64,000 nucleotides of DNA from Phycisphaerae bacterium (GTDB lineage Bacteria; Planctomycetota; Phycisphaerae; UBA1845). The notes beneath the pieces were generated by a model. The model did no database searches. It worked only from the letters and a program-made list of their open reading frames with translations, and was not told the DNA's origin. The stretch's first letter is position 1, and the number at the start of each line of letters is the position of its first letter. Where the stretch lies: NCBI GenBank assembly GCA_022072505.1, contig JAJVHU010000049.1, positions 36,915 to 100,914 of the forward strand. The letters are read 5' to 3'. Positions 1,662-16,117 of the stretch are shown piece by piece. Both the position numbers and the translations under genes were made by a program.

Positions 1662-2456
1662 TCAGTAACCGGGGAAGTACCAGTCGGACTCGACCATCAC
1701 CCGCGGATGGCGCACCTCGGCGTGACCGTCGTAGAACGACTGTGAGATGCCCGCCGGGTGGCGCATGTCGGCGGCGACGCGCGGATACAGGCCGCGCGGA
1801 AGCTGCGATCCGCGGAAAACGTCGTGGTAGACGAAGATGCGATGTCCCCGGTCGTTGGAGAAACCGGACGGCATGAACTTATGCGCTTCGGCGTTGTAGA
1901 CGATGCCCGCGGGGTTCTTGATCTCGGACAGAAGTTCGGGCGGATCGTCCGGCGAGCGGTCGGGGCGCCAGTGTCCGTTCTCGTTCGGTTCGGCGCGCTG
2001 GGTGTCCGTCGACCCGCTGATGTACACCTTGGGGAACCCGTTGACCACGTAATCCAGCGTCTGCTCGCCGATGCGCGTCTGGGTCTGCGGATCGGTGACG
2101 TCTTCCGGATATTCCGGGCATTGCAGCGTCGGAACCTCGCCGAACTGCGGCGCATAAGGCTGCAGCCGATCGATCTCATGGCCGATCATCTCGACGATCA
2201 TCACCGCCCAGGGGAACTCGTCTTGTCCGCCGTCGATGTCCTTCGGAAGAAAATCGTTGAACTCGTTCCCGTACATCGCCAGCGCGTGCCCCAGATCGCG
2301 CAGGTTCGACGTGCAGACGATGGCCCGCGCCTGACGACGGGACCGGTGAAGCGAGGGCAGGAGGATCGAGATCAACAGGGCGATGATCGCGATGACGACG
2401 AGCAACTCGATCAGCGTGAACGCCCGCGCACGTCGCACGTCCGGCAGCAGCGTCAT
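1662..2456 (-). CDS. Prepilin-type N-terminal cleavage/methylation domain protein, DUF1559 (H-X9-DG) family
   Basis: N-terminus [34 protein letters not shown] is a class III signal. C-terminal ...[11 protein letters not shown] is consistent with H-X9-DG family proteins. ATG at 2456 is preceded by GGAGGA 7 nt upstream. The track ORF extends further, to 2597. Confidence 0.85.
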
Positions 2457-2593
2457 GGCAAGATCCTCCATCTCCGACGAGGCCGCGATTCCCGATCCTC
2501 CGCTTGTACGGGAATCGCTCGGAAGATTCAAGTCTTTTCCCCCGCGATTTGTTCCCGGCGGCCCCTCCCGTCGCGGCGTCGTCCGCTTGACGT

Positions 2594-3634
2594 TCAACGG
2601 ATGGCGTACACCCAGAGGATTCCGGTGCTGCCGCCCGCGGGGTCGGCATAAGGGACGATCTGACCGCCCGCGACCTCGAGCGGTTCTCCATCCCGGGCGA
2701 TCGAGTGCCCCACGACCAGTCCGAGCACGCCGCCCATCACCACGTCGCTGAAATAATGCTCCTCATCCTCAAGCCGCGTGTACCCGACCAGCGCGCCAAG
2801 CCCGTAAAGCGGGATTCCCACCCACGGTCCGTACTCCTCGTGCAGGACGGAGGCGAAAACGAAGGTGCTCGCCGTGTGCCCGCTGGGGAAGGAGCCGAAC
2901 TCCCCGTTGGGGACATCGTCCCACGTCGCGGTCTTGCCGAGAATGACGGTCGCTCCGGTCAGCGCTAAGGCGCGAAAGAGCTTCGTGCTGACTTCGTAAG
3001 TGCGGTCGTCCTGTTGCTGGTGTCCGACGAGGTAGAAGATTCCCGCGACGCCGAAGTGCAGGCCGGGGTTCCCCAGGGCGCCGAAAGCGTCGCGCCAGTC
3101 GTCCTTGAACGTCCGGTGCGTTCTGAAAGAGTTCTCGACCGTGTCGTCCACATCCGTGGCTTGCAGGGTCAGTGACGCGCCGTAAGTCAGACCGAGGATG
3201 ACGAGATTCGCGCGATCCGAGTAGACCTGCTTCGCATCCTCCCAGAAAACGCCGGGGAATTCCTGAAGATCACGAGCGATCGTCTCCCCCAGATCCGGCA
3301 GGGGCCGGCGCGCCTGCGCGGGCGGCGGGACGATCGGATCACCGGTGAGATCCCTCGCTTCTCCCAGGTCGCTGACCAGGTATGCGCGTGAGCGTTCGAC
3401 GCGGGAACCCGCCGGGGCGGACGGGCGGCTCGCCCGGACCCGCGCACTTGCGAGATGCTCGACGCGAGCGGCGTCCGGACGGCCCGCGTTCGCGGCGGGA
3501 AAAGATGCCTGGACCAGCAACGATATTGATCGCACCGGCTCAGCGTTTCGGCCCGGGACGTTGGAGCACCCTGCGATCCCCAGGACCGATATCCCCCACG
3601 CCAATCCCGCACGATTGAAGTTGAACCTACGCAC
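2594..3634 (-). CDS. PAP2-family phosphatase lipoprotein
   Basis: PAP2 motifs SFPSGHTA and [12 protein letters not shown] (R-x5-H-x3-D). Lipobox VLGIAGCS follows RRFNFNR. GTG at 3634 is preceded by GGAGGGAGG 7 nt upstream. The track ORF extends to 3802. Confidence 0.8.
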
Positions 3635-4202: not shown

Positions 4203-5678
4203 ATGGTTGGTTTGTTAGGGATTGCGGCTTGTCTTTCGATGGCGGCGGCGCCGCCGAGCGGTCCGGTGCTGGCGGGGGGCGCGGTTAAGTTGACGCCGAC
4301 CGTCGAAGGCGTGGATCTGTCGGAGTTTTTTACGGCGTGGTCCACGCAGATCCCGGATCTGCCTGGGGATTCGGGAATGCCCTTCGCGGTCGAGTTGGAG
4401 CTGGGCGGGGGGATGTACACGCTGGTGCTGGATCCGTTCTCGGTGCGCGCCGAAGGGTTCCAGGCGCTGGTGGTCCGTGACGGAGAACTGGTCGAGGTTC
4501 CGGTGGAGGCGCCGAAGACGTACCGCGGTTACGTGGAAGGCCTTCCCGGCAGCATCGTGGGCGGCTCGTACTACGACGGGCAGTTGCGGCTTGTGATCGA
4601 GATGGGCGATCTGGGCAGCTTCGGCGTTCAGCCGGTCGCCGACTTCGTGCCGGGCGTGAATGCGTTGCTGCACGTGGCGTATGCGGCGGCGGACTCGTTC
4701 ACGGATGACACGTGGACCTGCGGAACCGACGAACTGCGCCACTCCTTCGGCGGCATGCAGCCTCCTCTCGATCAATCCGAGGCGAACGGGCCTAACCCCG
4801 CCGGCGGCGATCGCACGGCCGAGGTGGCGTTTGACACGGACTTCGAGTTCTTTCAGCGCCGCGGCAGCGTGCAGGCGTGCATCGACGACATCGAGGCGAT
4901 TCAGGCGGGCGTCGACGTGATCTACGAGCGCGACGTGAACATCTGCCACGTGATCACGCGGATCATCGTCCGCGACACGTCGAACGACCCGTATTCGGGC
5001 ACCGACGCGGAGTCCATCCTGACCCAGTTCCAGAATCACTGGAACAGCCAGCAGGGCGGGGTTCAGCGCGACCTGGCGCACCTGATGGCCGGGCGGTCGC
5101 GCGACGGCGGCATTTTAGGCATCGCGTACCTGAGCGTGGTGTGCAACCGCAGCTCGGCATACGGCGTGTCGTGGACGCTGTTCTCCAGCAACATGACGCA
5201 GCGCGTGGGGCTGACGGCGCACGAGGAAGGGCACAACTGGGGCGCCGGGCACTGCTGCAGCGGGTGCAGCGGATGCAGCACCTGCCGGATCATGTGTCCG
5301 TGTCTGGGCGGATGCTCCGGAATCCTCACGAGCTTCGGCACGTCGGAGATCAGCCAGATCACGAACCACCGCAACTCGCGAAGCTGCCTCACGGACGGTT
5401 GCGGCGGCGGCGGCGGGGGCGGCGGCGTTCAGTGCGAGGACGTCAAGAACCTCAAGGGGCGATGCCGGTCGAACGGCACGATCAAGGGCAAAGTCATCCT
5501 CTTCGATGAGTCGCACGACGGCGAAGAGGTGATCATCAGCATTGACGGACGCAACTTCACCCTCACGATCAGCGGCGCCCGCGCGTCGTACAGCGTTTGC
5601 TGCTACAGCGGACCGGGGCACAGCGTGTCGCTGGTGGATCCGGGCAATTGCATCACGATCCAGGTGAACTGCGACTAG
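4203..5678 (+). CDS. Secreted zinc metalloprotease, metzincin/reprolysin-like, with a Cys-rich and poly-Gly C-terminal region
   Basis: HEEGHNWGAGH fits HExxHxxGxxH and is followed immediately by CCSGCSGCSTCRIMCPCLGGCSG and a G8 run. Hydrophobic N-terminus MVGLLGIAACLSMAAA. GGAGGA sits 9 nt upstream of the ATG. Confidence 0.8.
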   Translation: MVGLLGIAACLSMAAAPPSGPVLAGGAVKLTPTVEGVDLSEFFTAWSTQIPDLPGDSGMPFAVELELGGGMYTLVLDPFSVRAEGFQALVVRDGELVEVPVEAPKTYRGYVEGLPGSIVGGSYYDGQLRLVIEMGDLGSFGVQPVADFVPGVNALLHVAYAAADSFTDDTWTCGTDELRHSFGGMQPPLDQSEANGPNPAGGDRTAEVAFDTDFEFFQRRGSVQACIDDIEAIQAGVDVIYERDVNICHVITRIIVRDTSNDPYSGTDAESILTQFQNHWNSQQGGVQRDLAHLMAGRSRDGGILGIAYLSVVCNRSSAYGVSWTLFSSNMTQRVGLTAHEEGHNWGAGHCCSGCSGCSTCRIMCPCLGGCSGILTSFGTSEISQITNHRNSRSCLTDGCGGGGGGGGVQCEDVKNLKGRCRSNGTIKGKVILFDESHDGEEVIISIDGRNFTLTISGARASYSVCCYSGPGHSVSLVDPGNCITIQVNCD

Positions 5679-5846: not shown

Positions 5847-6797
5847 TCACGTCGGCGCGAACCGCCGCTTGAGCGCGACATAAGGCAGCAGAAACCCCGC
5901 CGTCGCCAGCCACCCCGCCACGCCCGCGCCGACACTCGCCAGCGCCGCGTCGATGAACACGATCAACGCGATCAGCCAACCCACCGCGGTTTTCAGCACG
6001 TCCGCGCCAGGCCGCGTGATCGCCGTCACGCCGACGGCGACCACGGCTGTCATCAGGAGAACCACCGAAACGATGAGTCCCAGCCCGCCGGATGTAATTT
6101 CGATCGACGAATGCGAAACCTCGACGACGATCGGCATCAGGGAGATCCCCGCAAGCATCCCCAGCCAGCCGGGCAGGAGCGCCAAGCGCCTTGCCCGTCC
6201 GGTCTCATGCCGGGCAAACGCGGTCAAGCCGGCGACGTACACCGCAAGACACGCAGCCGCTGACGGCCACGCCACGTCATGCAGCACCAGCGCCTCGATC
6301 GAGAACGCCGGATGCAGCGATGCTCCCAGCAGAAAATTGATTCCCCGGCAAAGCCCCATCAGAGCGGGACCGAACACGGTGTGCTTGAGAACGTTGTAGG
6401 ACACGATCGAAGTCGTCAGGATGACCGCGACGCACCCCGGACGAACGCCCGCGTCCGGCGCCAGAAATCCGACGCACGCCGCCAGCAGCAGCCCGGCCGC
6501 AAAATGCTCGACCGCCACGTGCGCCGCCGCCCCGCGCGCGATCCTGCCCGACGGGATCGGTCGCTCGGGTCGTTCGTGGGCGTCATGCGGCGCGTCGACC
6601 ACGTCGTTCAGCGCCACGCCCCCGGCGTACAACGACATCGACGCCGCGCACGTGATCCCCAGCGGCAGCGCCGCCTCGAGCGACTCGATCCCGGAGAACA
6701 CCCCGCTGATCGCCGCGCCCGCGATCACGTCCGGCGGCGCCGTGAAAAGGTTCGGCACGCGCACCAGCTCGAAATACGCCCGCGCCCGCGGACTCAC
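5847..6797 (-). CDS. UbiA-family aromatic prenyltransferase
   Basis: LNDVVDAPHDAHERPERPIPSG fits the NDxxDxxxD...RP motif, and the protein is multi-pass hydrophobic. GTG at 6797 overlaps the TGA of the upstream gene (GTGA) and is preceded by GGGGGAG. The track ORF extends to 7064, into the upstream gene. Confidence 0.8.
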   Translation of the reverse strand: MSPRARAYFELVRVPNLFTAPPDVIAGAAISGVFSGIESLEAALPLGITCAASMSLYAGGVALNDVVDAPHDAHERPERPIPSGRIARGAAAHVAVEHFAAGLLLAACVGFLAPDAGVRPGCVAVILTTSIVSYNVLKHTVFGPALMGLCRGINFLLGASLHPAFSIEALVLHDVAWPSAAACLAVYVAGLTAFARHETGRARRLALLPGWLGMLAGISLMPIVVEVSHSSIEITSGGLGLIVSVVLLMTAVVAVGVTAITRPGADVLKTAVGWLIALIVFIDAALASVGAGVAGWLATAGFLLPYVALKRRFAPT

Positions 6798-7642
6798 TTC
6801 CGCTCCCCCGGCAACGCCGACAAGACCCGCCGCGCCTCCGCTCCGGCCGCGTCCGGGTCGTCCACGTAAGGATAAAGCTCGACCGTGACCCAGCCGTCGT
6901 ACCCCGTCCGCCGGATCGCGTCGAACACCGGCGCGAAGTCGATCGCCCCGCGGCCCGGAACAAGATGCGCATGCACCCGCGTCGCGGCAATGTCTTCGAC
7001 GTGATAGTGTCGCACGAAAGGCGCCAGCCGGACGACCGCGCCGGGCAGATCCTCTCCCACGCAATACAGGTGCCCGATGTCGAAGTTGATCCCGAACGCA
7101 GGCGAAGCGACGCGATCACAAAGCTCCAGCGTCTGCGCGACGTTCTCGATCAGCAGCTCCGGTTCCGGCTCAACCAGCAACGACACCCCGACGTCCTCCG
7201 CAACCCGAAGCGCCTCGCGCAGGCCGGTCACGAAAAGGTCCGTCGCCTCCTCGCGCGTCATGCCGGGCTCGAGCGGACCGCCGGGCTCCGTCGTGATCGA
7301 CGGCGCTCCGAGCCGCGCCGCCAGGCGCAGCGCCGCGATCGTGTGTTCGATCCGCACGCGGCGCAGCGCCGCGTCACGCTCGATCCACGAGGGGTGCCAG
7401 TACACGTGCCGCGGATCGCCCACCGCCTGCATCATGAACGCGTTGACGTTCGAGATCGAAAGCCCGGCCTCCACGACGCAACGCCGGATCGCCTCCGCCC
7501 GTGTCGCCGAGGTTGTCGCGGGCCAGGCATGAGGCGCGTCCGCCATCAACTCCACCCCCGCATACCCCAGCGCCGCCACCCGCCGCACCGCCTCCTCGAT
7601 CGCAAAGCGCAGGTACGCATTCGTGCTGTAGGCAAGCCTCAT
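6794..7642 (-). CDS. Sugar phosphate isomerase/epimerase (xylose isomerase-like TIM barrel)
   Basis: MRLAYSTNAYLRFAIEEAVRRVAALGYAGVELMADAPHAWP, ITTEPGGP, LLVEPEPE and INFDIGHLY are typical of the AP-endonuclease-2/TIM family. Confidence 0.8.
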   Translation of the reverse strand: MRLAYSTNAYLRFAIEEAVRRVAALGYAGVELMADAPHAWPATTSATRAEAIRRCVVEAGLSISNVNAFMMQAVGDPRHVYWHPSWIERDAALRRVRIEHTIAALRLAARLGAPSITTEPGGPLEPGMTREEATDLFVTGLREALRVAEDVGVSLLVEPEPELLIENVAQTLELCDRVASPAFGINFDIGHLYCVGEDLPGAVVRLAPFVRHYHVEDIAATRVHAHLVPGRGAIDFAPVFDAIRRTGYDGWVTVELYPYVDDPDAAGAEARRVLSALPGERK

Positions 7643-7803: not shown

Positions 7804-9345
7804 TTACACGCCACTGCTGGGAGGACAGATGAGAATTGCGTCCGCGGTCGTCGGAGTCGGCGACGCTTCAGGGGCGGGCGGCGCCACGGAGAGGATCGGC
7901 GCAAGGTCGGGCCGCTGATGCCTCCACATGCCCGCCACCGTCTCGATTTCGGGGTTCGGATCACTCCCCTGCGCGGTCGCCCACGCATCAAACCTCCGCA
8001 ACACGCCGACCAGCACCAGATCATGATCCGCCGGACGACCGCCGTGATCCGGCGCCTTCGCAATCGACAGCGCCAACCGCGCCGCCGCAAGCGGCGCCAA
8101 GTCCGCCAACCTCAGAATGCCCGCCCGGGCCACCGGCCACGCGAACGACTCGCACGCCCGCGACCGCTTCCACAATCCCGACAGCGACGACCAATGCAGC
8201 TCGATCTCCCCCGGCGACCCCGCGCCCAGCGTGGTCATCAACCGCTCCTGAAGATCGCGCGTCAATCGCGCATGAATGTCGCGCTCGATCCCGCCCGGCG
8301 GCGCCAGGTCCACGAACTCCGCCGACATCGCCAGCAGACGCGGAACGTCCGCCTGCTCGACCTCGTCCGTCGCCAGATACCACTTCCCCACGAAATCCAG
8401 CGATCGCAGAGACCAATCCGCGAACGTCAGCGACGTGCGACGCGAAAGCTCCCCGATCCGGTCCCCCCGCCACTGCCGCTCGACGAAGTCCAGCCACTCA
8501 CTGCGCTCCGGCGCCCCCTCGACGCCCCGCGCCGCGTCGATGAACGTCGTCTCCTGCCCCTCGCACAGCTCGCGCGACCGCGCATCCTCGGCCGACACGA
8601 CGACCAGATGATGCGCCCGCGTGTTGGAGTACCGCAGACCCGCCGACATCGACATCGTCAAGCGCAGCGGTCCGGGCAGCGCCATCCAGAGCAGCTCCGC
8701 CTCCTCCGTCGGCAACCCCACGACCTGAAGCACGACGGCCTTGCGCTGCACCAGCAGGTGCGCCACGCGCCGGCGCACCGCCGTGCCCGACGCCCCCCCG
8801 GGAAACGCTCCGTCTTCTCCGACGCACGTGCCGTCGCAGGTCAGCGCCACGGGCGGCAAGGGATCCTTCGGCTTGAGCTGCGGCGCGGTCAGCTCGCGGT
8901 CCATCGCTGCCCGCAGCACCGCAAAAGGGTTGTATCCGAAGCGTTCATAATCCGCGCGCTCGATCACCAGGTTGTACGTGTACACCCGCTGCCCCCGGCG
9001 CCCGGTGTGCTCCGCGCCGGCGGTGCGCGTGTACGCCACGCACATCCGCCCGGTCGCAAGCGGATACGCCGCCAGCCCGATCGCGTCCGGCGTGGTGCTG
9101 CAAAGCGCCTCGTGCGAGGGGGAAAACCGCGTGATCGCCTGCTTCTCCTCGACCCGCAGCGACCGCGACGACGCGACGATCCGGTAGCCTTCGCCCGTGG
9201 GCGTCCGGATCGACGTGAAGATCGCCGGGTGCGCGACGATCTCCGTGTTCGAGGGGGAGACCTCCCGCCCCGACACGCTCGACGAACACGGCGATCCGGC
9301 GCCGGACCGCGGTCCTCGGGTTATGACAGGTGCGCCAAGGTCCAC
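7804..9345 (-). CDS. Hypothetical 513-aa protein, last gene of the GTPase operon; possibly GTPase-associated protein 1 (GAP1)-like
   Basis: Long ORF with G-ending codon bias like its neighbours. The opposite-strand ORF 7795..9390 translates to R/P/Q/H-rich nonsense. GTG at 9345 is preceded by GGAG and overlaps the GTPase gene by 25 nt. The N-terminal stretch AIFTSIRTPTGEGYRIVASSRSL and the helical C-terminal half recall GAP1 proteins from memory only. I recognise no catalytic motif. Confidence 0.55.
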   Translation of the reverse strand: MDLGAPVITRGPRSGAGSPCSSSVSGREVSPSNTEIVAHPAIFTSIRTPTGEGYRIVASSRSLRVEEKQAITRFSPSHEALCSTTPDAIGLAAYPLATGRMCVAYTRTAGAEHTGRRGQRVYTYNLVIERADYERFGYNPFAVLRAAMDRELTAPQLKPKDPLPPVALTCDGTCVGEDGAFPGGASGTAVRRRVAHLLVQRKAVVLQVVGLPTEEAELLWMALPGPLRLTMSMSAGLRYSNTRAHHLVVVSAEDARSRELCEGQETTFIDAARGVEGAPERSEWLDFVERQWRGDRIGELSRRTSLTFADWSLRSLDFVGKWYLATDEVEQADVPRLLAMSAEFVDLAPPGGIERDIHARLTRDLQERLMTTLGAGSPGEIELHWSSLSGLWKRSRACESFAWPVARAGILRLADLAPLAAARLALSIAKAPDHGGRPADHDLVLVGVLRRFDAWATAQGSDPNPEIETVAGMWRHQRPDLAPILSVAPPAPEASPTPTTADAILICPPSSGV

Positions 9346-10205
9346 TCAAAAGGCTCCAGGATGCCCCGCGGCGAGCAGTGCAGCGGATAAGGAATGACGT
9401 TGCCTTCCGCGTCGTGCGCATACCCCAGCGACCCCACGACGCTCGCCGCGAAGAAGTCATACTTCTCGAACCGGCTCTCGCAGAGGTTCCACGTCCGGTT
9501 CAGGTTCGTCTTCGCGAAGATCCGCGGATCGTCGAAGCACTCGGGGCAGTAATCCCCCTTGCACAGCACGATCGCCACCGGCGTGTCGATCTTCTCCCCG
9601 CGTTTCTTCGCAAAAATGCCGTCCAGATACGACAGCAGCTTCAACGCGAAGAAGTCCGGCTGCGGAGAACCCGCCGCCGCCACCCCCGCGTCCACCAGCA
9701 GCAGCGACCCCGCGCTCTTCTCCAGCAGGCTGCGGATCACCGTGTACGTCTTCGGCGACGACACCTCCGCCGCCAGCGCTTCGCCGGCCATGTCCGGCAT
9801 GACCAGGTCGTAGATCATGTCGCCGTGGCGGTGATGCGCCACCTGGTAGTACGCCCAGTGCCACTGATCGACTTCCGTCGGCGTCTTCGGCGGGAACTGC
9901 CGCGTCCCCAGGTGACTGACCACGTTGTGCTGAAGGTTGACCGAGTATGCGCCCTTCGGCACGGCCTCGAAGTCCCCGGCGCGCTTGCTGAGCATGTCCA
10001 GCAGCGTCCCGAGGTACACCGTCTTCCCCGTGTTGCTCTCCCCGATCACGCTGACGATGCACGGGTCGCGGTCCTGCGCCGCGGCCTCATGAATCAGCGC
10101 CATCGGCGCGTAACACCGCGAGCAGACCAGCGCGTCCGGCTTGTTGTCCGCCTCGCAGATCAGGCACGGCGTCGACGCCGTCGTCATCATCGTCGTCGTC
10201 AGCAT
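9321..10205 (-). CDS. Zn-ribbon-fused P-loop GTPase (TRAFAC-like)
   Basis: CLIC-x10-CSRC ribbon at the N-terminus. GESNTGKT is the Walker A/G1 motif, VMPDMAGE is DxxG/G3, and IVLCKGD sits at the NKxD/G4 position. Confidence 0.75.
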   Translation of the reverse strand: MLTTTMMTTASTPCLICEADNKPDALVCSRCYAPMALIHEAAAQDRDPCIVSVIGESNTGKTVYLGTLLDMLSKRAGDFEAVPKGAYSVNLQHNVVSHLGTRQFPPKTPTEVDQWHWAYYQVAHHRHGDMIYDLVMPDMAGEALAAEVSSPKTYTVIRSLLEKSAGSLLLVDAGVAAAGSPQPDFFALKLLSYLDGIFAKKRGEKIDTPVAIVLCKGDYCPECFDDPRIFAKTNLNRTWNLCESRFEKYDFFAASVVGSLGYAHDAEGNVIPYPLHCSPRGILEPFEWTLAHLS

Positions 10206-10260
10206 GAATGCGCTCTTTCAAACAATCCCGCCGGCTCTTGATGACCCGCCCGCCGCCCGC

Positions 10261-11292
10261 CTACGCGTTCATCCACGGCGCGTCCTCCAGGTTCATCGCA
10301 AGACGAAACCCCAGATTGTGCGTCCGACCCAGGGCGATCTGACCCGTGCGGAACTGGCTCGTCGCCTGCGCCTCGAAATACGCGTCGAACGCCGCCCCGC
10401 GCACCGCGTACATCGGCATCTCCCCGACGATCGGCTGGCCCTCCGGATCGAAAATCTCGAACCGCGACGACGTCCACTCCCAGACGTTGCCCACCAGTTG
10501 GCGCACGCCGTTCGGCGCCGCCCCTTCCGGGTACGCGTCCACCGCAACCGTCGTCCCCACGCCCGTCAACCAGACGTTGCACCGCTGCGTGTTCATCGCG
10601 TCGCCCCACGGAAAGCGCCGCAACACGTCCGCGTCGCTCTTCACGTGCCAGCTCGCCGCCATCTGCCACTCCGCCTCCGTCGGCAGGCGCTTCCCCGCCC
10701 ACGCCGCATACGCCATCGCCTCGTACCAGCACACCCCCACCACCGGATGATCCGACAACCGCCGGTCGTGACGACCCTCACGCCAGTAACGCGGCGCCGT
10801 CGCACCGGTCCGATCCTTCATCTCGATGATGTGCGGCCAGATGTCCTCCGGCCACAGCGGCAGTTCGTCGTACCCCCCCGCGTCCACGAAGTGCTGAAAC
10901 TGCGCGTTCGTCACACAGAAAACGTCAAGCAGAAAAGGCGACACCGACGTCGCCGCCTCTCCGTCGTCGCCGTCGCCGTCGATCCGCGGAAAAAGCGCGA
11001 TCTCCCCGGCCGGAACCAGCGCCATCCCCGCCTCGAGACACTGCTCCGCCTCCTGAAGCAGCGGACGCGCCGACGGGTGCGTCTTCCACCGGTCCGCCTG
11101 CCGCAGCGCCGCCGCGTGCCGCTGCTGCCGCAGCATCTCACGCAGCGGATCGTCGTCCGGAAACTCCCGCGGAGCGGGTTCGTACGTCGTCATCAGGTGG
11201 GGCGGTTCGTTCACCGCCGCGCGCGCCCGCGCACCCGAAGATCGCCCGCCGTTGCCCCCTTTCTTCAGCCGGTCAAAAAGTCTCAGGCCCAT
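10261..11292 (-). CDS. Cytoplasmic FGE/SUMF1-domain (formylglycine-generating enzyme family) protein
   Basis: HPVVGVCWYEAMAYAAWAGKRLPTEAEW, VRQLVGNVWEWTSS and THNLGFRLAMN. There is no hydrophobic signal at the N-terminus. ATG at 11292 has GAGGAAGG 8 nt upstream. Confidence 0.85.
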   Translation of the reverse strand: MGLRLFDRLKKGGNGGRSSGARARAAVNEPPHLMTTYEPAPREFPDDDPLREMLRQQRHAAALRQADRWKTHPSARPLLQEAEQCLEAGMALVPAGEIALFPRIDGDGDDGEAATSVSPFLLDVFCVTNAQFQHFVDAGGYDELPLWPEDIWPHIIEMKDRTGATAPRYWREGRHDRRLSDHPVVGVCWYEAMAYAAWAGKRLPTEAEWQMAASWHVKSDADVLRRFPWGDAMNTQRCNVWLTGVGTTVAVDAYPEGAAPNGVRQLVGNVWEWTSSRFEIFDPEGQPIVGEMPMYAVRGAAFDAYFEAQATSQFRTGQIALGRTHNLGFRLAMNLEDAPWMNA

Positions 11293-11326
11293 CACGCTGA
11301 CCTTCCTCGCCGATCCCGCGGCGTCG

Positions 11327-12394
11327 CTACGCCCCGATCGCCTTCCGCTTCGCGTCGCGCCGCAGCTTCTTGAACTGGTCCGCCTGTCCCGGTTTCTCCC
11401 CTGGCGCGACCGGAGCGGATGTGGACGGCGTCGGAACCGGCGGCATCGCCCGCGGCGGAGGCGGCGTGAACGCCGCCCCTCCCGTCGCTCCCAACCGGCG
11501 CATCAACTCCTCCCGCTGTGCCGCGACTTCCGACAAGTCGTGCTGGAGCTGCGCCTGAAGCGCCTGGATCGTCTCCTGCGCCGCCGACATTTCCGCCGCC
11601 CGCAGCTCGCACTGCTTCCACTGCACCGTCATCTGCTGCTCCCGCTCGTCCAGGACGCGCCGCTGCTGCTCCAACTGCCCCGCCGCCTGACGGACGTACG
11701 CCTCCTGCTGCGCGACTTGCGTCCGCAGCCCTTCAACCTCCCGATGTTGCGCCTCCGCCCGGGCCAGCGCCTCTGACGCCTCGGACTCCCGCGCCGAAAG
11801 CTCCGCCTCGACCGCCTCCACCCGCGCCCGCTCCGCCTCGACCGCCTTGCGCTCCCGCGCCAGCTCCGCCGCCTCCCGCGCCCGCCGATCCTCGATCTCG
11901 GACGTGGACCGCGCCAGCGTCGACTGAAGCTCCTCGATCGTCCCCCGATCCTCCGCCAGCTTCGTCTCCCGCGCCTTCAGCGCCTCCTCGCGCTTCGCCA
12001 GCGCCGCCAGCAGCGTCTTCAACTCGGACTGCTTCGACTGCGCCTCCCCTGACTGCCGCTGGGCGTCCGCGAACGTCGCCGCCAGCGCCGTCTCTCGTTC
12101 CGAAAGCGCCGCCGCCTTCTCGTCGAGTTCCGCCCGGATCCGGTCCAGATCCTGCTGCGCCCGACGTCGCTGCGCCTCCCACGCCTCGCGATCCTTCGCC
12201 GCTTTCTGCTGGTCGATCGACAGCGCGTCCGCACGCAGTTCCGCGTCGGCAACTCTCGCCTGAAGCGCCTCGATCTGCTCGCGCAGCCCCGCGCGCACCG
12301 CCTCCACTGCGGCGAGAAGATCCCGCCCGGCGGCGTGAAGCCCTTCCGCCTCGGGACGCGTCTGCGGTTCGGATCGATCAGTCCGTTCTTGCAT
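11327..12394 (-). CDS. Coiled-coil protein (355 aa), first gene of the GTPase operon
   Basis: This is the C-terminal part of the 1322-aa track ORF. From ATG 12394 (MQERTD...) the sequence is continuous E/A/R/L/Q heptad-like text, then a Pro-rich segment and the basic tail KKLRRDAKRKAIGA. G-ending codon bias matches the neighbouring genes. Confidence 0.65.
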   Translation of the reverse strand: MQERTDRSEPQTRPEAEGLHAAGRDLLAAVEAVRAGLREQIEALQARVADAELRADALSIDQQKAAKDREAWEAQRRRAQQDLDRIRAELDEKAAALSERETALAATFADAQRQSGEAQSKQSELKTLLAALAKREEALKARETKLAEDRGTIEELQSTLARSTSEIEDRRAREAAELARERKAVEAERARVEAVEAELSARESEASEALARAEAQHREVEGLRTQVAQQEAYVRQAAGQLEQQRRVLDEREQQMTVQWKQCELRAAEMSAAQETIQALQAQLQHDLSEVAAQREELMRRLGATGGAAFTPPPPRAMPPVPTPSTSAPVAPGEKPGQADQFKKLRRDAKRKAIGA

Positions 12395-12685
12395 GAGGTC
12401 GTCGCTTCGTTCCTCGTCCGCGCCCGGCGCGCGGCGCCCGGCTCCGGTACTTCCACTATAAGATCGTCGGCGAAGCGCCCCGCCGTCGTTAGGCGCGGAC
12501 GCCTCACGGGCACGCCCCGCCCAATAACGCGCCCTCCCCCTGAATTGCGCCGCCGACGCCCCCTCGATCCCGCCCCCTATCGGACTCACCCGCCTCGACC
12601 GCTTACTGCCGACCGCCGTTGTGCCGATTCCCTTAATACGCAACACCGCGCGGAATCCACCGGGCGGGAAGGAGTCCAGACGCGC

Positions 12686-15600
12686 ATGCCGACCACTCAA
12701 CCCCTCGCCGAACTGCTGCAATCCGTGGACCGCGCCGTCGCGCCCTTCGAGTCCGCGCTCGCCGACTTCTTCACCCGCGTCGAATCCTGGGAGGCCTCCT
12801 CCGAACAATCCTCCCGCCAGCAGCACTCCGTCCGCGCCGCCCTCGACCGTCGGCAGTCCGAACTCGATGCCCGTGAGAAGGAACTCGACGACGAAGCCCG
12901 CCGCGTCGCCGACGCCGTCAACGCGCTTGTCGTTCAGAAAGAAGGCCTCGAACAACTCCGCCACGATGTCGAGCGCGGCCGCAAGGACTGCGAACGTCGG
13001 CAGCACGATCTTAAGAACCAGATCGCCGAGCTGGAGAAAATCCGCGACCAGATCATGCAGTCGCGCGAGCGCCTCGACCTCGACCGCGAGACGCTCCAGC
13101 GGGACGCCGATCGTCTCGCACACGAGCAACGTCTGCTCCGCGAGCAGCAGAACTCGCTGACCTCGCGTGAGTCCGCGATGAAGGAGCGCCTCGCCGCCCT
13201 CGACGTCCGTTCCGGCGAACTCGACGCCCGCGAGACCTCGATCCAGCAGCGCGCCCTCGAGACCGAGGAACGCGACGTCGCGTTCCACGGCAGGGAGAAG
13301 GAGCTGGCCGCGCGCGCCGCGACTCTCGAACGCGATCAGCTCGCCGCCACGCGCGAGCGCGAACTGCTCGACGCCCGCCGCCGCGATCTGGAAGCCGACT
13401 CCGCTGAACTGGAAACCGCCCGCCGCGCCCTCGAGGAGCAGACCCGTGCCGCCGCGACTGCCGCCGCCGAGCAGGCCCGCGACGCGGACGCACGCGCTCG
13501 CGATGTTGAAAAACGACTCCGCGCCCTCGACGCCCGCGAGAAAAGACTCGACGCCCGGCAGGAATCCCTCGACGCCGCGCTCAAAGAACTGGAAACCGCC
13601 CGCACGCGCTTCGAGACGGAATCCGCCGCGAAGGAGGAGACCCTGGCCGATCGCCTCCGCGAACTCACCGAACTGAAGGAGGGCTCGCAGGCCGATCAGG
13701 ACCGTCTCCGAAACGGATTCGCCGAAATCGAAAAAGTCCGCGCGGAACTCAAGGAACGCGACGCCGCGCTCAAAACCGAGCAACGCAGGCTCGAAGACGA
13801 ACGCCGCGCGTTCGAAGCCCAGGTCCGCAAGCAGCAGGAGTTCGTCGACAATCTCGGGTCCGCCGAGAAGGATCTGCTCGCACGCGAGACCCGCCTCCAG
13901 GATCAGTCGGCGCAGCTCGCCGCCCGGGATTCCGAAGGCGCCCGCCGCGCCGAGGAGCTGGCGGCGCAGGAGAAGTCCCTCGCCGCGCGTCTCGCCGAAC
14001 TGAATCCGCGCGCCGCCGAACTCGACGCCGCCGAAGCCCGCCTCGCCGATCGCGCCGCGGCGATCGAGGCCCAGGCCGCCGCGATCGTCGAACGTGAGCG
14101 GATGTCCGCCGCCGCGGCGCGCGAGCTCGAGGCCCGCGAACGCGAACTCGTCCGCGCACGCCAGCAGATTGAGCAGAACGCCCGTCAGGACGCCGCCAAC
14201 CTCGACGCCCAGCGCGCCGACCTGGCCGAGCGCCTCGCCCACCTCGAACGCCGCGAAGCCGATCTGCTCGACGTGCAAGGGCAGATCGACGCCGCCCAGC
14301 GGCGACTTGCCGACGTCGAACGCGCCGCCGAAACAAAGACCCGCGCCCTCAAGGCCGACCGCGACGCCTTCGAGCAGGCCCGCGCCGCCTTCGAGCAGAC
14401 CCTCCGCTGCGACCGCGCCGCGCTCGCCGCGCGCCACGCCGAACTCGACGAGCAGACGCGCCTCCTCGACGACCGGGAGGCCCGCCTCGCCGCCCGGCAG
14501 GAGGACGCCGTCCGCGTCGAAACCGAATTGCGCGAACGTGAAACTCGCGCCCGTGCCCGCCTCGACGAACTCGCCGCGAAGGACCGCGACGTCCGCACGA
14601 CCCAGGAACGCCTCAGTCACGAGCAGACGCAGCTCGAACAACGCGCCGCACAACTGGACCAGCGCCGACAGGAACTCGACGAACTCGCGGATCAGGTCGA
14701 CCGCCTCAAGGCGCAATCCAGCGCCAGGGAGGAGTCCCTCGCCTCCGACGCCTCCTCGATCCAGAAAACGCAACGCGAGCTTCAGAAGGCGCTCAAGGAG
14801 ACCGGCGCCCGCGCCCGCGAACTCGACGATCGCAAGCAGGCCCTGGAAAACCGCGAACGCCAGATCGCCGACGCCGACGCCGAACTCGCCAGCCGAAAAC
14901 GCCAACTTGAAGAACTCGAAGCGTCCTTCGACGGCGCTCGCCGCACCGCCGAGGAGACCGAGGCTCGACTCCGGCAGCAGTGGGCGGCCTTGGACCGCGC
15001 CCGCGAGGAATTCGAGGACCGCCAGAAACACGTCCAGTCTGAAAGCGAGAAGCATCGCCTCGAACTCGACGCCCTCCGCGAGCAGATCTACGCCACCCGG
15101 GAGGAACTCGAAGCCCAGCGCTCCGCCCTCGGCGCCTCGTCCGGCGAACTCCGCGAACGCGCCGCCCTCGTCGATCAGCAGCAGCGCGAACTCGCCGAGC
15201 ATCAGCGCCAGCTCGACGCCCAGCGACAGCGCCTCGAAGCCTACAAATCCGAACTCGACGCCCGCCAGTCCGCCCTCGACGGCGCCGGCGCGCACGCCGA
15301 TCAGACCCGTACCGAAGCCGAGCAGCAGCTCCGCGCCCTCCGCGAGGAACTCGAAACTCGCCAGCGCGCCCTCGACGAGCAGCTCGAAAAATCACGCGCG
15401 GAACTCGACGCGCTTCGCGACGAGCTTCAGGCCGAACGCGCCGCGTTCCTCGCCGAACGCGAGCAGGCCGCTTCATCCCCCGCGACGACTGCGGCCGACG
15501 CGACGACCCCCGCGACCGTCGCCGGCGACGACCCGGAGGCCGACCTCCTGTGCGGGCTTGCGATCGCCGAGTTCTGGCGCAACTTTGATTTCCCGGAACA

Positions 15601-16117
15601 CGCCGCAACCGCCGCGCACCCGGCCTCGACGGACAGCCTCGACACTGAAGCCTCCTCCGGCGCCCCGGCGGGAAACTCCGCCGCCGCGGACCCTCTCGCG
15701 GAATTTGACGCGCCAGAACCCGAGTCGGGAGACACCGCCCAGGAGGATGAAGCACTCGGCCAGGACGACGACCAGCTCGCGGCCCTGCGCCGCGCCGCCG
15801 CCGCCGCCCGCGCGGAGATCGAGGCGACGCGCAACGGTGAGGACGCCCTGCCCACCACGCCCCTGATCACCCCCCCAACGCCGACGATCGACAACGCCGC
15901 ACCCGCCGCGGAGGAGACCGCCCCCGCCGCGCCGCGCCGCCCGGAGGACGAGAACCCGGCGCTCATCGAAAGTCTCGATCAGGACGCCCGCGAACGCCTC
16001 AAGGCCCTGCGCCGCATCAACCCCAACCGCACCCTCTCCGAACTCATTGAGATGGTGAAACACGAGTCGCGCGTCAAAGGCGACTCGTCGAAAAAGAAAT
16101 CCTGGTGGAAACGCTGA
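12686..16117 (+). CDS. Giant coiled-coil protein (1143 aa)
   Basis: ATG at 12686 has GGAAGGAG 11 nt upstream. There are about 900 aa of uninterrupted E/R/A/L/D/Q repeats (LDAREKELDDEARR, LEARERELVRARQQ and similar), then an acidic A/P/T-rich linker and a basic C-terminus LSELIEMVKHESRVKGDSSKKKSWWKR. The track ORF starts earlier, at 12335. Confidence 0.75.
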   Translation: MPTTQPLAELLQSVDRAVAPFESALADFFTRVESWEASSEQSSRQQHSVRAALDRRQSELDAREKELDDEARRVADAVNALVVQKEGLEQLRHDVERGRKDCERRQHDLKNQIAELEKIRDQIMQSRERLDLDRETLQRDADRLAHEQRLLREQQNSLTSRESAMKERLAALDVRSGELDARETSIQQRALETEERDVAFHGREKELAARAATLERDQLAATRERELLDARRRDLEADSAELETARRALEEQTRAAATAAAEQARDADARARDVEKRLRALDAREKRLDARQESLDAALKELETARTRFETESAAKEETLADRLRELTELKEGSQADQDRLRNGFAEIEKVRAELKERDAALKTEQRRLEDERRAFEAQVRKQQEFVDNLGSAEKDLLARETRLQDQSAQLAARDSEGARRAEELAAQEKSLAARLAELNPRAAELDAAEARLADRAAAIEAQAAAIVERERMSAAAARELEARERELVRARQQIEQNARQDAANLDAQRADLAERLAHLERREADLLDVQGQIDAAQRRLADVERAAETKTRALKADRDAFEQARAAFEQTLRCDRAALAARHAELDEQTRLLDDREARLAARQEDAVRVETELRERETRARARLDELAAKDRDVRTTQERLSHEQTQLEQRAAQLDQRRQELDELADQVDRLKAQSSAREESLASDASSIQKTQRELQKALKETGARARELDDRKQALENRERQIADADAELASRKRQLEELEASFDGARRTAEETEARLRQQWAALDRAREEFEDRQKHVQSESEKHRLELDALREQIYATREELEAQRSALGASSGELRERAALVDQQQRELAEHQRQLDAQRQRLEAYKSELDARQSALDGAGAHADQTRTEAEQQLRALREELETRQRALDEQLEKSRAELDALRDELQAERAAFLAEREQAASSPATTAADATTPATVAGDDPEADLLCGLAIAEFWRNFDFPEHAATAAHPASTDSLDTEASSGAPAGNSAAADPLAEFDAPEPESGDTAQEDEALGQDDDQLAALRRAAAAARAEIEATRNGEDALPTTPLITPPTPTIDNAAPAAEETAPAAPRRPEDENPALIESLDQDARERLKALRRINPNRTLSELIEMVKHESRVKGDSSKKKSWWKR

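Follow-up and report, generated by a model that had tools for sequence, protein, structure and literature searches.

A conserved DO-GTPase/GAP1 gene cluster with FGE-like and coiled-coil partners in Phycisphaerae, and its possible cellular roles

The stretch of DNA analysed here, the window, is 64,000 nucleotides (nt) long and comes from a contig of a Phycisphaerae bacterium; within it, we studied a cluster of genes at 7804-12394 on the minus strand and 12686-16117 on the plus strand, which encodes a Zn-ribbon GTPase, a protein with a formylglycine-generating enzyme (FGE) domain, two coiled-coil proteins and a protein whose gene lies directly downstream of that of the GTPase (Table 1). A first-pass annotation, made from the sequence before any database search, had described the minus-strand part as a four-gene operon comprising a coiled-coil gene, an FGE-domain gene, a GTPase gene and an orphan, and had put it forward as a candidate GTPase-centred conflict or sensing system. 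Because Pfam places both the GTPase and its downstream neighbour there, we assign the locus by its profile matches to the DO-GTPase/GAP1-N2 systems, in the planctomycete form associated with FGS domains. We cautiously lean towards the view that it is a five-gene GTPase-switch module with a lineage-specific cell-biological role, for example in envelope or membrane organisation, polarity or division.

Gene content of the cluster and its encoded proteins

The list of open reading frames (ORFs) and a reading of the sequence agree on four tightly packed consecutive ORFs on the minus strand, with gaps of 34 nt between the coiled-coil and FGE genes and 55 nt between the FGE and GTPase genes, just as the first-pass annotation had reported. 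The Shine-Dalgarno-like motifs that it had placed before the second and fourth genes are also present, with GAGGAAGG situated 5-8 nt 5' of the FGE start (for which an alternative in-frame GTG exists at 11295) and GGAG situated 8 nt 5' of GTG 9345. The 25-nt overlap that it had given for the GTPase gene and gene 4 holds if gene 4 starts at GTG 9345 and is replaced by a 44-nt gap if the start is GTG 9276, as in an identical database protein of 490 aa (P0001). As that protein is short but the nearest homologue (P0002) has the long form, the start codon of gene 4 is ambiguous between the two.

Table 1. Positions of the cluster genes and of other features of the window discussed in the text
Feature	Coordinates	Strand	Start codon, Pfam family
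Giant coiled-coil protein, 1143 aa	12686..16117	+	ATG 12686
Divergent intergenic region, 291 nt, presumed promoter region	12395..12685	.	
Small coiled-coil protein, 355 aa	11327..12394	-	ATG 12394
FGE/FGS-domain protein, 343 aa	10261..11292	-	ATG; PF03781
Zn-ribbon DO-GTPase, 294 aa	9321..10205	-	PF19975, PF19993
GAP1, N2 type, 490 aa (GTG 9276) or 513 aa (GTG 9345)	7804..9276 or 7804..9345	-	PF20013
DUF1559 protein	1662..2597	-	
Reprolysin-like (M12B) zinc metalloprotease	4203..5678	+	
UbiA-family prenyltransferase and xylose-isomerase-like TIM-barrel genes	5847..7642	-	
Second FGE-sulfatase-domain protein, 527 aa	46921..48504	+	PF03781
HerA-like ATPase, 713 aa	53310..55451	-	

The GTPase matches PF19975 (DO-GTPase1) with 46.6 bits and PF19993 (DO-GTPase2) with 35.5 bits, the Pfam cutoff being 27 for both. 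Every motif previously read from its sequence is in place: a single CxxC-x10-CxxC Zn ribbon made up of C14, C17, C28 and C31 (10113-10166), the P-loop GESNTGKT (10020-10043), the Walker B/G3 motif DMAG, here extended to DMAGE (9780-9794), and the G4 motif CKGD (9552-9563). Among 120 homologues, the four ribbon cysteines, the P-loop, DMAGE including Glu142, and CKGD are all invariant, and the glutamate after the G3 glycine in DMAGE is a hallmark of the DO-GTPase family. An AlphaFold2 model of the protein is of moderate confidence (pLDDT 74.8, pTM 0.79), with the switch regions modelled at low confidence, and a Foldseek search with it returned MglA at the top, followed by EF-Tu, GBPs, RABL3, SR-beta and Sar1, with similar E-values throughout, i.e., generic TRAFAC G domains. 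No solved-structure relative was found by sequence or profile search of PDB chains (no match at E < 0.9), and NCBIfam contained nothing specific. Membership in the translation or ribosome-assembly GTPases was considered and rejected, as neither Pfam nor NCBIfam gave such a match, the PDB search gave none either, and EF-Tu was just one of many generic fold matches in the Foldseek output. Across 1.84 billion representative proteins, the GTPase matched 257 clusters at E <= 0.001, 58 of them at E <= 1e-30, so the family is small and compact.

Gene 4, which had been described as an orphan carrying no placeable motif, is not one: its product matches PF20013 (GAP1-N2) with 49.5 bits against a cutoff of 24. 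As this is above threshold, we identify it by its Pfam profile as GTPase-associated protein 1 (GAP1). PF20013 is likewise found in each of the 124 homologues in the protein collection (33/33 in the aligned set), and all homologues with a named source come from Phycisphaerae or Planctomycetota metagenome-assembled genomes (MAGs). The profile comparison with the GAP1 models that had been proposed as a check thus came out positive for the N2 domain and negative for the others in the window protein: GAP1-M gave a weak match (E 0.002) in 2/33 homologues, the window protein not among them, and GAP1-C gave none. Besides GAP1-N2, Pfam held no match to the window protein at E values up to 1, and NCBIfam held nothing specific.

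An AlphaFold2 model of GAP1, built from a 116-sequence alignment, is confident (pLDDT 91.9, pTM 0.88) and consists of three domains. Residues 11-126 (8899-9246) have the order b-b-a-b-b-b-a-a, which is that of a longin domain, residues 143-247 (8536-8850) form an alpha/beta domain with five strands, and residues 260-461 (7894-8499) form an all-helical domain. This three-part order agrees with the description of the DENN module as longin, DENN and d-DENN (Zhang et al. 2012, PMC3521125). When compared with the PDB by Foldseek, the model matched a folliculin-complex chain first (6nzd_H, E 7e-4, probability 0.98) and TagF second (9t0n, E 3e-3, probability 0.98, TM-score 0.37 on the target), with further matches to FLCN (8dhb_J), DENND10 (8p0v_M), another FLCN-FNIP2 chain (probability 0.18) and GATOR1/SEA entries; the probabilities for the FLCN, TagF and DENND10 matches range from 0.77 to 0.98. 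The predicted architecture of GAP1 is thus suggestive of a folliculin/DENN-like protein. The literature searched contained no earlier statement that GAP1 or TagF is DENN- or longin-like, and the paper that defined these systems (Kaur, Burroughs, Iyer, Aravind, eLife 2020, PMC7159879) does not mention longin, DENN, Roadblock or TagF.

Residues that are invariant in the GAP1 homologue alignment include G30, Y31, E89, R93, G95, R97, R205 and R220. In the model, G30 and Y31, which belong to the motif GEGYR, sit at the hairpin between strands 1 and 2, and the loop E89..R93.G95.R97, which belongs to the motif GAEHTGRxGQR, links strands 4 and 5. A 2025 study (PMC12290439) groups folliculin, SMCR8 and Nprl2 as "GAP longins" and describes a motif at the loop before strand 2, an arginine finger and relatives in Asgard archaea. 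Judging by their placement in the model, the GEGYR hairpin and the E89..R93.G95.R97 loop are candidate catalytic elements of GAP1.

The FGE-like protein matches PF03781 (FGE-sulfatase) with 144 bits over residues 88-332 (10297-11031) and carries the motifs HPVVGVCWYEA, GNVWEWT and GFRL, all as first read. It begins with MGLRLFDRLKK (conserved form M-x-L-[KR]-L-F-x-R-K-K), which is followed by a variable linker. A hydropathy scan found neither a signal peptide nor a hydrophobic segment in it, in agreement with the earlier reading. By sequence it comes closest to the FGE-like C-terminal domains of EgtB and OvsA, to true FGEs and to SUMF2/pFGE; in PDB alignments the true FGEs end near residue 280, and only the non-catalytic SUMF2/pFGE reaches the C-terminus (residue 334). 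The catalytic, copper-binding cysteine pair, located near the C-terminus in human FGE, is absent, because the last ~115 residues of the protein are free of cysteine, with none after the CNVW motif. Against NCBIfam, the EgtB/SenA/OvoA models align with the FGE-like part only (model positions 193-363 of 413) and reach 124 bits against a cutoff of 360. With both the cysteine pair and the DinB-type domain absent, the reading as an active FGE or EgtB-type enzyme was rejected, and we favour the view that the protein is a non-catalytic binding domain in the cytoplasm. No template/variable repeats of the kind found in diversity-generating retroelements (DGRs) were detected around the FGE gene, where only low-identity coiled-coil repeats turned up. 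A second FGE-sulfatase-domain protein encoded elsewhere in the window (PF03781, 52 bits), the paralogue to which the first-pass annotation had pointed, is much more divergent than the cluster copy.

The small coiled-coil protein is free of proline over residues 15-310 and ends, after a proline-rich linker, in a conserved basic tail, DQFKKLRRDAKRKAIGA (11330-11380). It belongs to no Pfam family and gave only matches of the coiled-coil type (SMC, Rad50 and JetC arms). The tail motif F-x-[KR]-[LM]-x-R-D-x-x-R-[KR] closes the same-strand ORF 5' of the FGE gene in all 68 loci with upstream DNA, takes the form FQKLCRDAKR in a second subfamily (B), and has a related version even in the distant Pirellulales locus L081. 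On the other side of the intergenic region, the giant coiled-coil protein has a conserved N-terminal motif, ~900 proline-poor coiled-coil residues and a C-terminal module, LDxxARERLKALRRINPNRTLSELI, which is followed by the basic/aromatic tail KKKSWWKR (about 15971-16114). A hydropathy scan found neither transmembrane segments nor signal peptides in the cluster proteins.

In subfamily A, to which the window belongs, a divergent coiled-coil ORF of 820-1600 aa adjoins the small coiled-coil gene in loci with enough upstream DNA; the window protein and the divergent neighbour in locus L003 are 49% identical over 1163 aa. In subfamily B, the protein encoded upstream on the same strand is short (170-330 aa) and has the same modules at its N- and C-termini. 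The giant proteins have the N-terminal motif in common as well as a C-terminal consensus, LDPExAxKLKxLRRLNPxKSxxELL, with a linker and a KKKxW[FW]xRK tail, and a hidden Markov model of the C-terminal module matches 54 loci. Pfam recognised no domain, and no fibronectin type III (FNIII) repeat, in either the giant or the short subfamily B proteins. Since the divergent coiled-coil gene is kept in place with common terminal modules, we count it, on this comparative evidence, as the fifth member of the functional unit. The four genes of the first-pass annotation therefore stand, and the boundary drawn around them at 7804-12394 does not. The tail of the small protein (FKKLRRDAKRK) and the module of the giant one (LKALRRINPNR) have a [KR]-x-L-R-R core in common, so that one partner might recognise both elements.

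The DNA between the two coiled-coil genes contains the block TTCGCCGACGATCTTATAGTGGA, which includes TATAGT, occupies 12452-12474 on the minus strand and precedes the start of the small coiled-coil gene by 58-80 nt. In an alignment with loci L001-L004 this block is nearly invariant, even though in L003 and L004 the identity of the coiled-coil proteins on either side is no more than 41-50%. We regard it as a candidate promoter or operator for the two divergent genes. A 1322-aa ORF on the minus strand (11327..15295) was rejected as an artefact in which the small coiled-coil gene is joined to the antisense shadow of the giant coiled-coil gene on the plus strand. As codon composition at third positions (GC3) does not separate the strands there, gene callers could be misled by it.

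Conservation, inheritance and genomic context

A scan for relatives covering one genome per GTDB species found 133, and the locus comparisons drew on 80 fetched loci, each from another assembly. The order coiled-coil, FGE, GTPase, GAP1 is conserved, with FGE, GTPase and GAP1 on the same strand in 76/76 loci having enough upstream DNA, which answers the question of synteny raised at first reading; the GTPase gene is present and adjoins GAP1 in 79/79. Even the most distant relatives, a Pirellulales MAG with 23% GAP1 identity and a JGI contig, keep the gene order. Such an arrangement is far beyond chance. There is one such locus per assembly among the 80, a count that covers this locus type, as no search was made for other DO-GTPase systems elsewhere in these genomes.

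Across the loci, median identities to the four minus-strand proteins of the window are 69% for the GTPase, 54% for the FGE-like protein, 35% for GAP1 and 31% for the coiled-coil protein, and the pace of change is considerably higher in GAP1 and the coiled-coil proteins than in the GTPase. The pairwise identity matrices of the four proteins are correlated (Spearman rho 0.70-0.83), from which it follows that the four genes were inherited as a unit, their components unswapped. The closest loci are from Phycisphaerae MAGs, with protein identities of 88-99%. Relative to L001, the GTPase is 99% identical, the flanking TIM-barrel enzyme 93%, the FGE-like protein 93% and GAP1 88%; relative to L003, the corresponding values are 88%, 77%, 66% and 48%. 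In both comparisons the GTPase is slower-evolving than neighbouring housekeeping genes. The cluster was probably inherited vertically. The complete cassette was also found in two MAGs labelled Candidatus Binatota and Alphaproteobacteria (L060 and L070), which could be planctomycete contigs that were mis-binned or cases of rare horizontal transfer.

The genes around the cluster are metabolic or housekeeping in character. On one side lie genes for IspH, a DUF1559 pseudopilin-like protein, PAP2, a reprolysin-like protease, UbiA and a TIM-barrel enzyme, and on the other those for HIT, APS kinase, a binding protein and a glycosyltransferase; DNA polymerase I and cytochrome oxidase are encoded farther away within the window. 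The conserved neighbours in related loci are likewise metabolic. A search of PADLOC-DB v2 with the four minus-strand proteins gave no convincing match: the GTPase, GAP1 and the FGE-like protein had none, and the coiled-coil protein had only weak matches to coiled-coil arms (JetC and similar). A tblastn search with the GTPase gave no match in 72,556 plasmids and 50,697 phages, collections in which planctomycete replicons are likely few.

Relation to known systems and possible roles of the cluster

Kaur et al. (2020, PMC7159879) define these systems by a DO-GTPase with a downstream GAP1, report FGS domains in some planctomycete GAP1-N2 systems, which form a separate minority, and class the FGS domain as an effector rather than as a sensor, the role put forward in the first-pass annotation; both roles are predictions. 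The family that the first-pass annotation had named is the right one, as the Pfam assignments and this paper agree, and the kind of system found here, including its planctomycete FGS form, is already described in silico. The window cluster has in common with it a Zn-ribbon TRAFAC GTPase with a glutamate after the Walker B glycine, a directly downstream N2-type GAP1, for which the model predicts three globular parts, an FGE/FGS partner and a planctomycete host. It differs in having one Zn ribbon instead of the usual two and a single GTPase instead of a paralogous pair, in lacking both an FNIII-repeat component (Pfam, five proteins) and transmembrane segments, and in having a fixed rather than variable partner set, two members of which are coiled-coil proteins whose termini are conserved. 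The cluster is also single-copy and set in a core-genome context, and the GAP1-M and GAP1-C models of Pfam do not reach the window protein. To this our analysis adds a fifth gene, motifs conserved at the protein termini, the invariant and vertical pattern of the cluster, and the predicted folliculin/DENN-like architecture of GAP1.

Several regulators outside this family offer points of comparison. The FLCN-FNIP/DENN regulators (FLCN, DENND, C9orf72-SMCR8 and GATOR1 Nprl2/3) resemble the GAP1 model in their order of a longin domain, a five-strand alpha/beta domain and a helical part, in having a dedicated small-GTPase partner, and in a conserved glycine-containing hairpin and arginine-rich loops within the longin-like domain. 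They differ from it in that no sequence similarity is detectable, whole-chain TM-scores are low and GAP1 is bacterial; moreover, they act on Rag, Arf and Rab proteins, whereas the partner of GAP1 is a divergent Zn-ribbon TRAFAC GTPase and the activity of GAP1 is a predicted one. The similarity seen in the model could reflect very remote homology or convergence. MglA is a polarity GTPase under the control of a GAP of the Roadblock fold, and the output of the MglA-MglB system (with RomR/RomX in Myxococcus) is the spatial organisation of cell machinery. This system is similar in that a small GTPase gene lies beside a gene for a regulator that belongs, or in the case of GAP1 may belong, to the Roadblock/longin superfamily, and MglA is the best match of our GTPase model. 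It is dissimilar in that there is no Pfam or sequence membership in common, the regulator is a small Roadblock dimer as opposed to a 490-aa three-domain GAP1, and the FGE-like and coiled-coil partners are extra here. TagF, which regulates type VI secretion post-translationally and ranked second in the Foldseek search, is like GAP1 a bacterial protein with an alpha+beta and an alpha/beta domain; no type VI secretion genes are present here, however, and GAP1 has an extra helical domain of ~200 aa. We know of no GTPase partner of TagF. Finally, the FGE-like protein has the fold without the catalytic cysteines in common with SUMF2/pFGE, the FGS domains of DGR variable proteins and the FGE-like sensors of Ser/Thr kinases, of which pFGE alone aligns with it end to end, making a binding role likely. 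It differs from these in being cytoplasmic, undiversified (no template/variable repeat) and highly conserved, with family-specific N-terminal motifs.

We propose the following mechanism. With its G1, G3 and G4 motifs intact, the Zn-ribbon GTPase would alternate between GTP- and GDP-bound states, and GAP1, always encoded directly 3' of it, would act as its dedicated regulator. The longin platform of GAP1 may dock on the switch regions of the GTPase, where an arginine from the GAEHTGRxGQR loop or the GEGYR hairpin would be supplied for hydrolysis; or else GAP1 may promote nucleotide exchange. The nucleotide state of the GTPase would in turn govern how the two coiled-coil proteins assemble or are positioned on the inner side of the membrane, with their basic termini (FRKLRRDAKRKAIG; KKKSWWKR) as putative membrane- or partner-docking elements and the non-catalytic FGE-like protein as a presumed adaptor that binds a ligand or a protein.

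Because the cassette is invariant and single-copy, lies in a core metabolic context and includes a very slowly evolving GTPase, we consider a cell-biological role likelier than one in fast-diversifying immunity. We accordingly rate it above the alternative that survives best, which is a GTPase-centred anti-invader conflict system as proposed by Kaur et al. (2020); there, GAP1 would couple sensing to a GTPase threshold switch, the FGS protein would be a non-enzymatic neutralising effector or invader binder, and the coiled-coil proteins would form a superstructure limiting spread. Family membership, the part of the first-pass proposal that held up, is in its favour, as are the definition of the wider family through variable effectors and the fact that the same paper lists planctomycete FGS versions and proposes effectors that bind or form superstructures (PMC7159879). 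The hallmarks of a conflict system that were sought, namely variable effectors, multiple copies, a defence-island or mobile context and fast evolution, were not found in the cluster. There is no effector variability here, with the FGE gene in every one of the 76 loci and its domain well conserved and free of DGR-like repeats. GAP1 and the coiled-coil proteins do evolve quickly, as a conflict system would have it; the components are nevertheless unshuffled, and the GTPase changes more slowly than its housekeeping neighbours. The single locus per assembly, the core metabolic flanks in place of defence islands, the outcome of the PADLOC search and the absence of the GTPase from the plasmid and phage collections speak against it too, and the cluster lacks the sensor component with FNIII repeats that typifies GAP1-N2 systems. 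On balance, we regard a conflict system as a possible but rather unlikely reading.

Several points nevertheless weigh against the cell-biological reading. A conflict function was predicted for the wider family, and such a function could still be served by a conserved core plus a fixed binding effector. Just 3' of GAP1 in L081, the distant Pirellulales locus, lie genes for a trypsin-like protease and an AAA_15/AAA_21 ATPase (9649..12041 of that locus), which favours a conflict role; they are the sole defence-like neighbours among the loci examined. An essential housekeeping role is unproven, given that 80/80 listed carriers are MAGs and universality in Phycisphaerae is not established. The folliculin/DENN-like architecture of GAP1 comes from a predicted model, whose rmsd is large and whose whole-chain TM-scores are low (0.15-0.37), as would be expected of multi-domain comparisons, so that the fold match is suggestive only; at the sequence level, neither Pfam nor a profile search of the PDB, which returned helical-repeat noise only, links GAP1 to DENN, folliculin or longin proteins. 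Membrane binding by the basic termini is suggested by their composition alone. A scan for the sigma-70 consensus predicted 0 promoters and terminators were at chance level, both uninformative results. Full-text literature searches turned up no experimental study of any DO-GTPase/GAP1 system, in line with the first-pass annotation.

A more specific form of the cell-biological reading would make GAP1 a true bacterial counterpart of the folliculin/DENN longin-type regulators, which together with its GTPase would control a membrane-associated coiled-coil cytoskeleton specific to Planctomycetota. We consider this a long shot. The GTPase/coiled-coil cytoskeletal module that had been named at first reading as an alternative has gained support from the second conserved coiled-coil gene, the giant one, and from the folliculin/DENN-like predicted fold of GAP1.

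Hardly credible, in our view, is an enzymatic or maturation module in which the FGE-like protein would be an active oxidase or sulfoxide synthase (FGE-, EgtB- or OvoA-like) and the GTPase with GAP1 would be a metallochaperone or assembly factor. Metallochaperone roles are common among GTPases, as in the G3E family, and the best sequence matches of the FGE domain are indeed EgtB/OvsA C-terminal domains and FGEs. The catalytic cysteine pair and the DinB-type iron-binding domain of EgtB/OvoA are both absent, though, with the score far below the equivalog cutoff (124 vs 360), and the neighbours of the GTPase model are TRAFAC switch GTPases (MglA, Rab-like, Sar1, GBP) as opposed to G3E chaperones. 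This reading also leaves the two conserved coiled-coil partners unexplained. That the genes are functionally unrelated and adjacent by chance is effectively refuted by the synteny, with order and strand kept in all 76 loci down to 23% GAP1 identity and with gene distances correlated.

DO-GTPase/GAP1 systems are a large class known from prediction alone, and they were assigned to conflict because of the variable effectors associated with them. That the cluster is invariant and vertical in pattern argues against a diversifying immune role for the planctomycete branch and challenges a blanket "conflict" label there. As this branch is compact and invariant, and its five soluble proteins have clear motifs, biochemical work could well start from it. 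A concrete and testable mechanism is suggested by the longin/DENN-like architecture predicted for GAP1, which would act on the adjacent GTPase as a GTPase-activating protein or a guanine nucleotide exchange factor. If this is true, bacteria too possess such a regulator architecture, together with a GTPase of its own, which bears on the debate about the origin of eukaryotic GTPase regulators; the origin of DENN/longin GTPase regulation has so far been traced only to Asgard archaea and MglB-type Roadblock proteins (PMC12290439, PMC3521125), and, should GAP1 be a true counterpart of those regulators, the cluster would provide a bacterial reference point for it. Division and membrane organisation are poorly understood in this phylum, where the two coiled-coil partners and their conserved basic termini suggest a scaffold under GTPase control; under the more specific reading given above, the cluster could be a machine for division, polarity or membrane organisation. 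For planctomycetes without FtsZ, the means of dividing and of shaping membranes is a recognised open problem (PMC5147048), and a link between the cluster and their division is speculative.

Flanking genes and other features of the window

Directly 3' of GAP1 lie the genes for the UbiA-family prenyltransferase and the xylose-isomerase-like TIM-barrel protein. Downstream of GAP1 in loci L001-L004, the TIM-barrel gene is present in 4/4 and UbiA was detected in L001-L003. The listed UbiA and TIM-barrel ORFs overlap by about 270 nt, which makes a start further downstream probable for UbiA. The reprolysin-like (M12B) zinc metalloprotease has an N-terminal hydrophobic leader and a cysteine- and glycine-rich C-terminal region, and it is 93% identical in L001.

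The gene for the HerA-like ATPase (DUF87, with a weak TrwB-type match) adjoins that for DNA polymerase I; HerA-type ATPases are found in repair systems and in some defence systems. The DUF1559 protein belongs to a family that is greatly expanded in Planctomycetota, in keeping with the placement of the window suggested by its closest loci in Phycisphaerae MAGs, and carries an N-terminal prepilin-type methylation motif.

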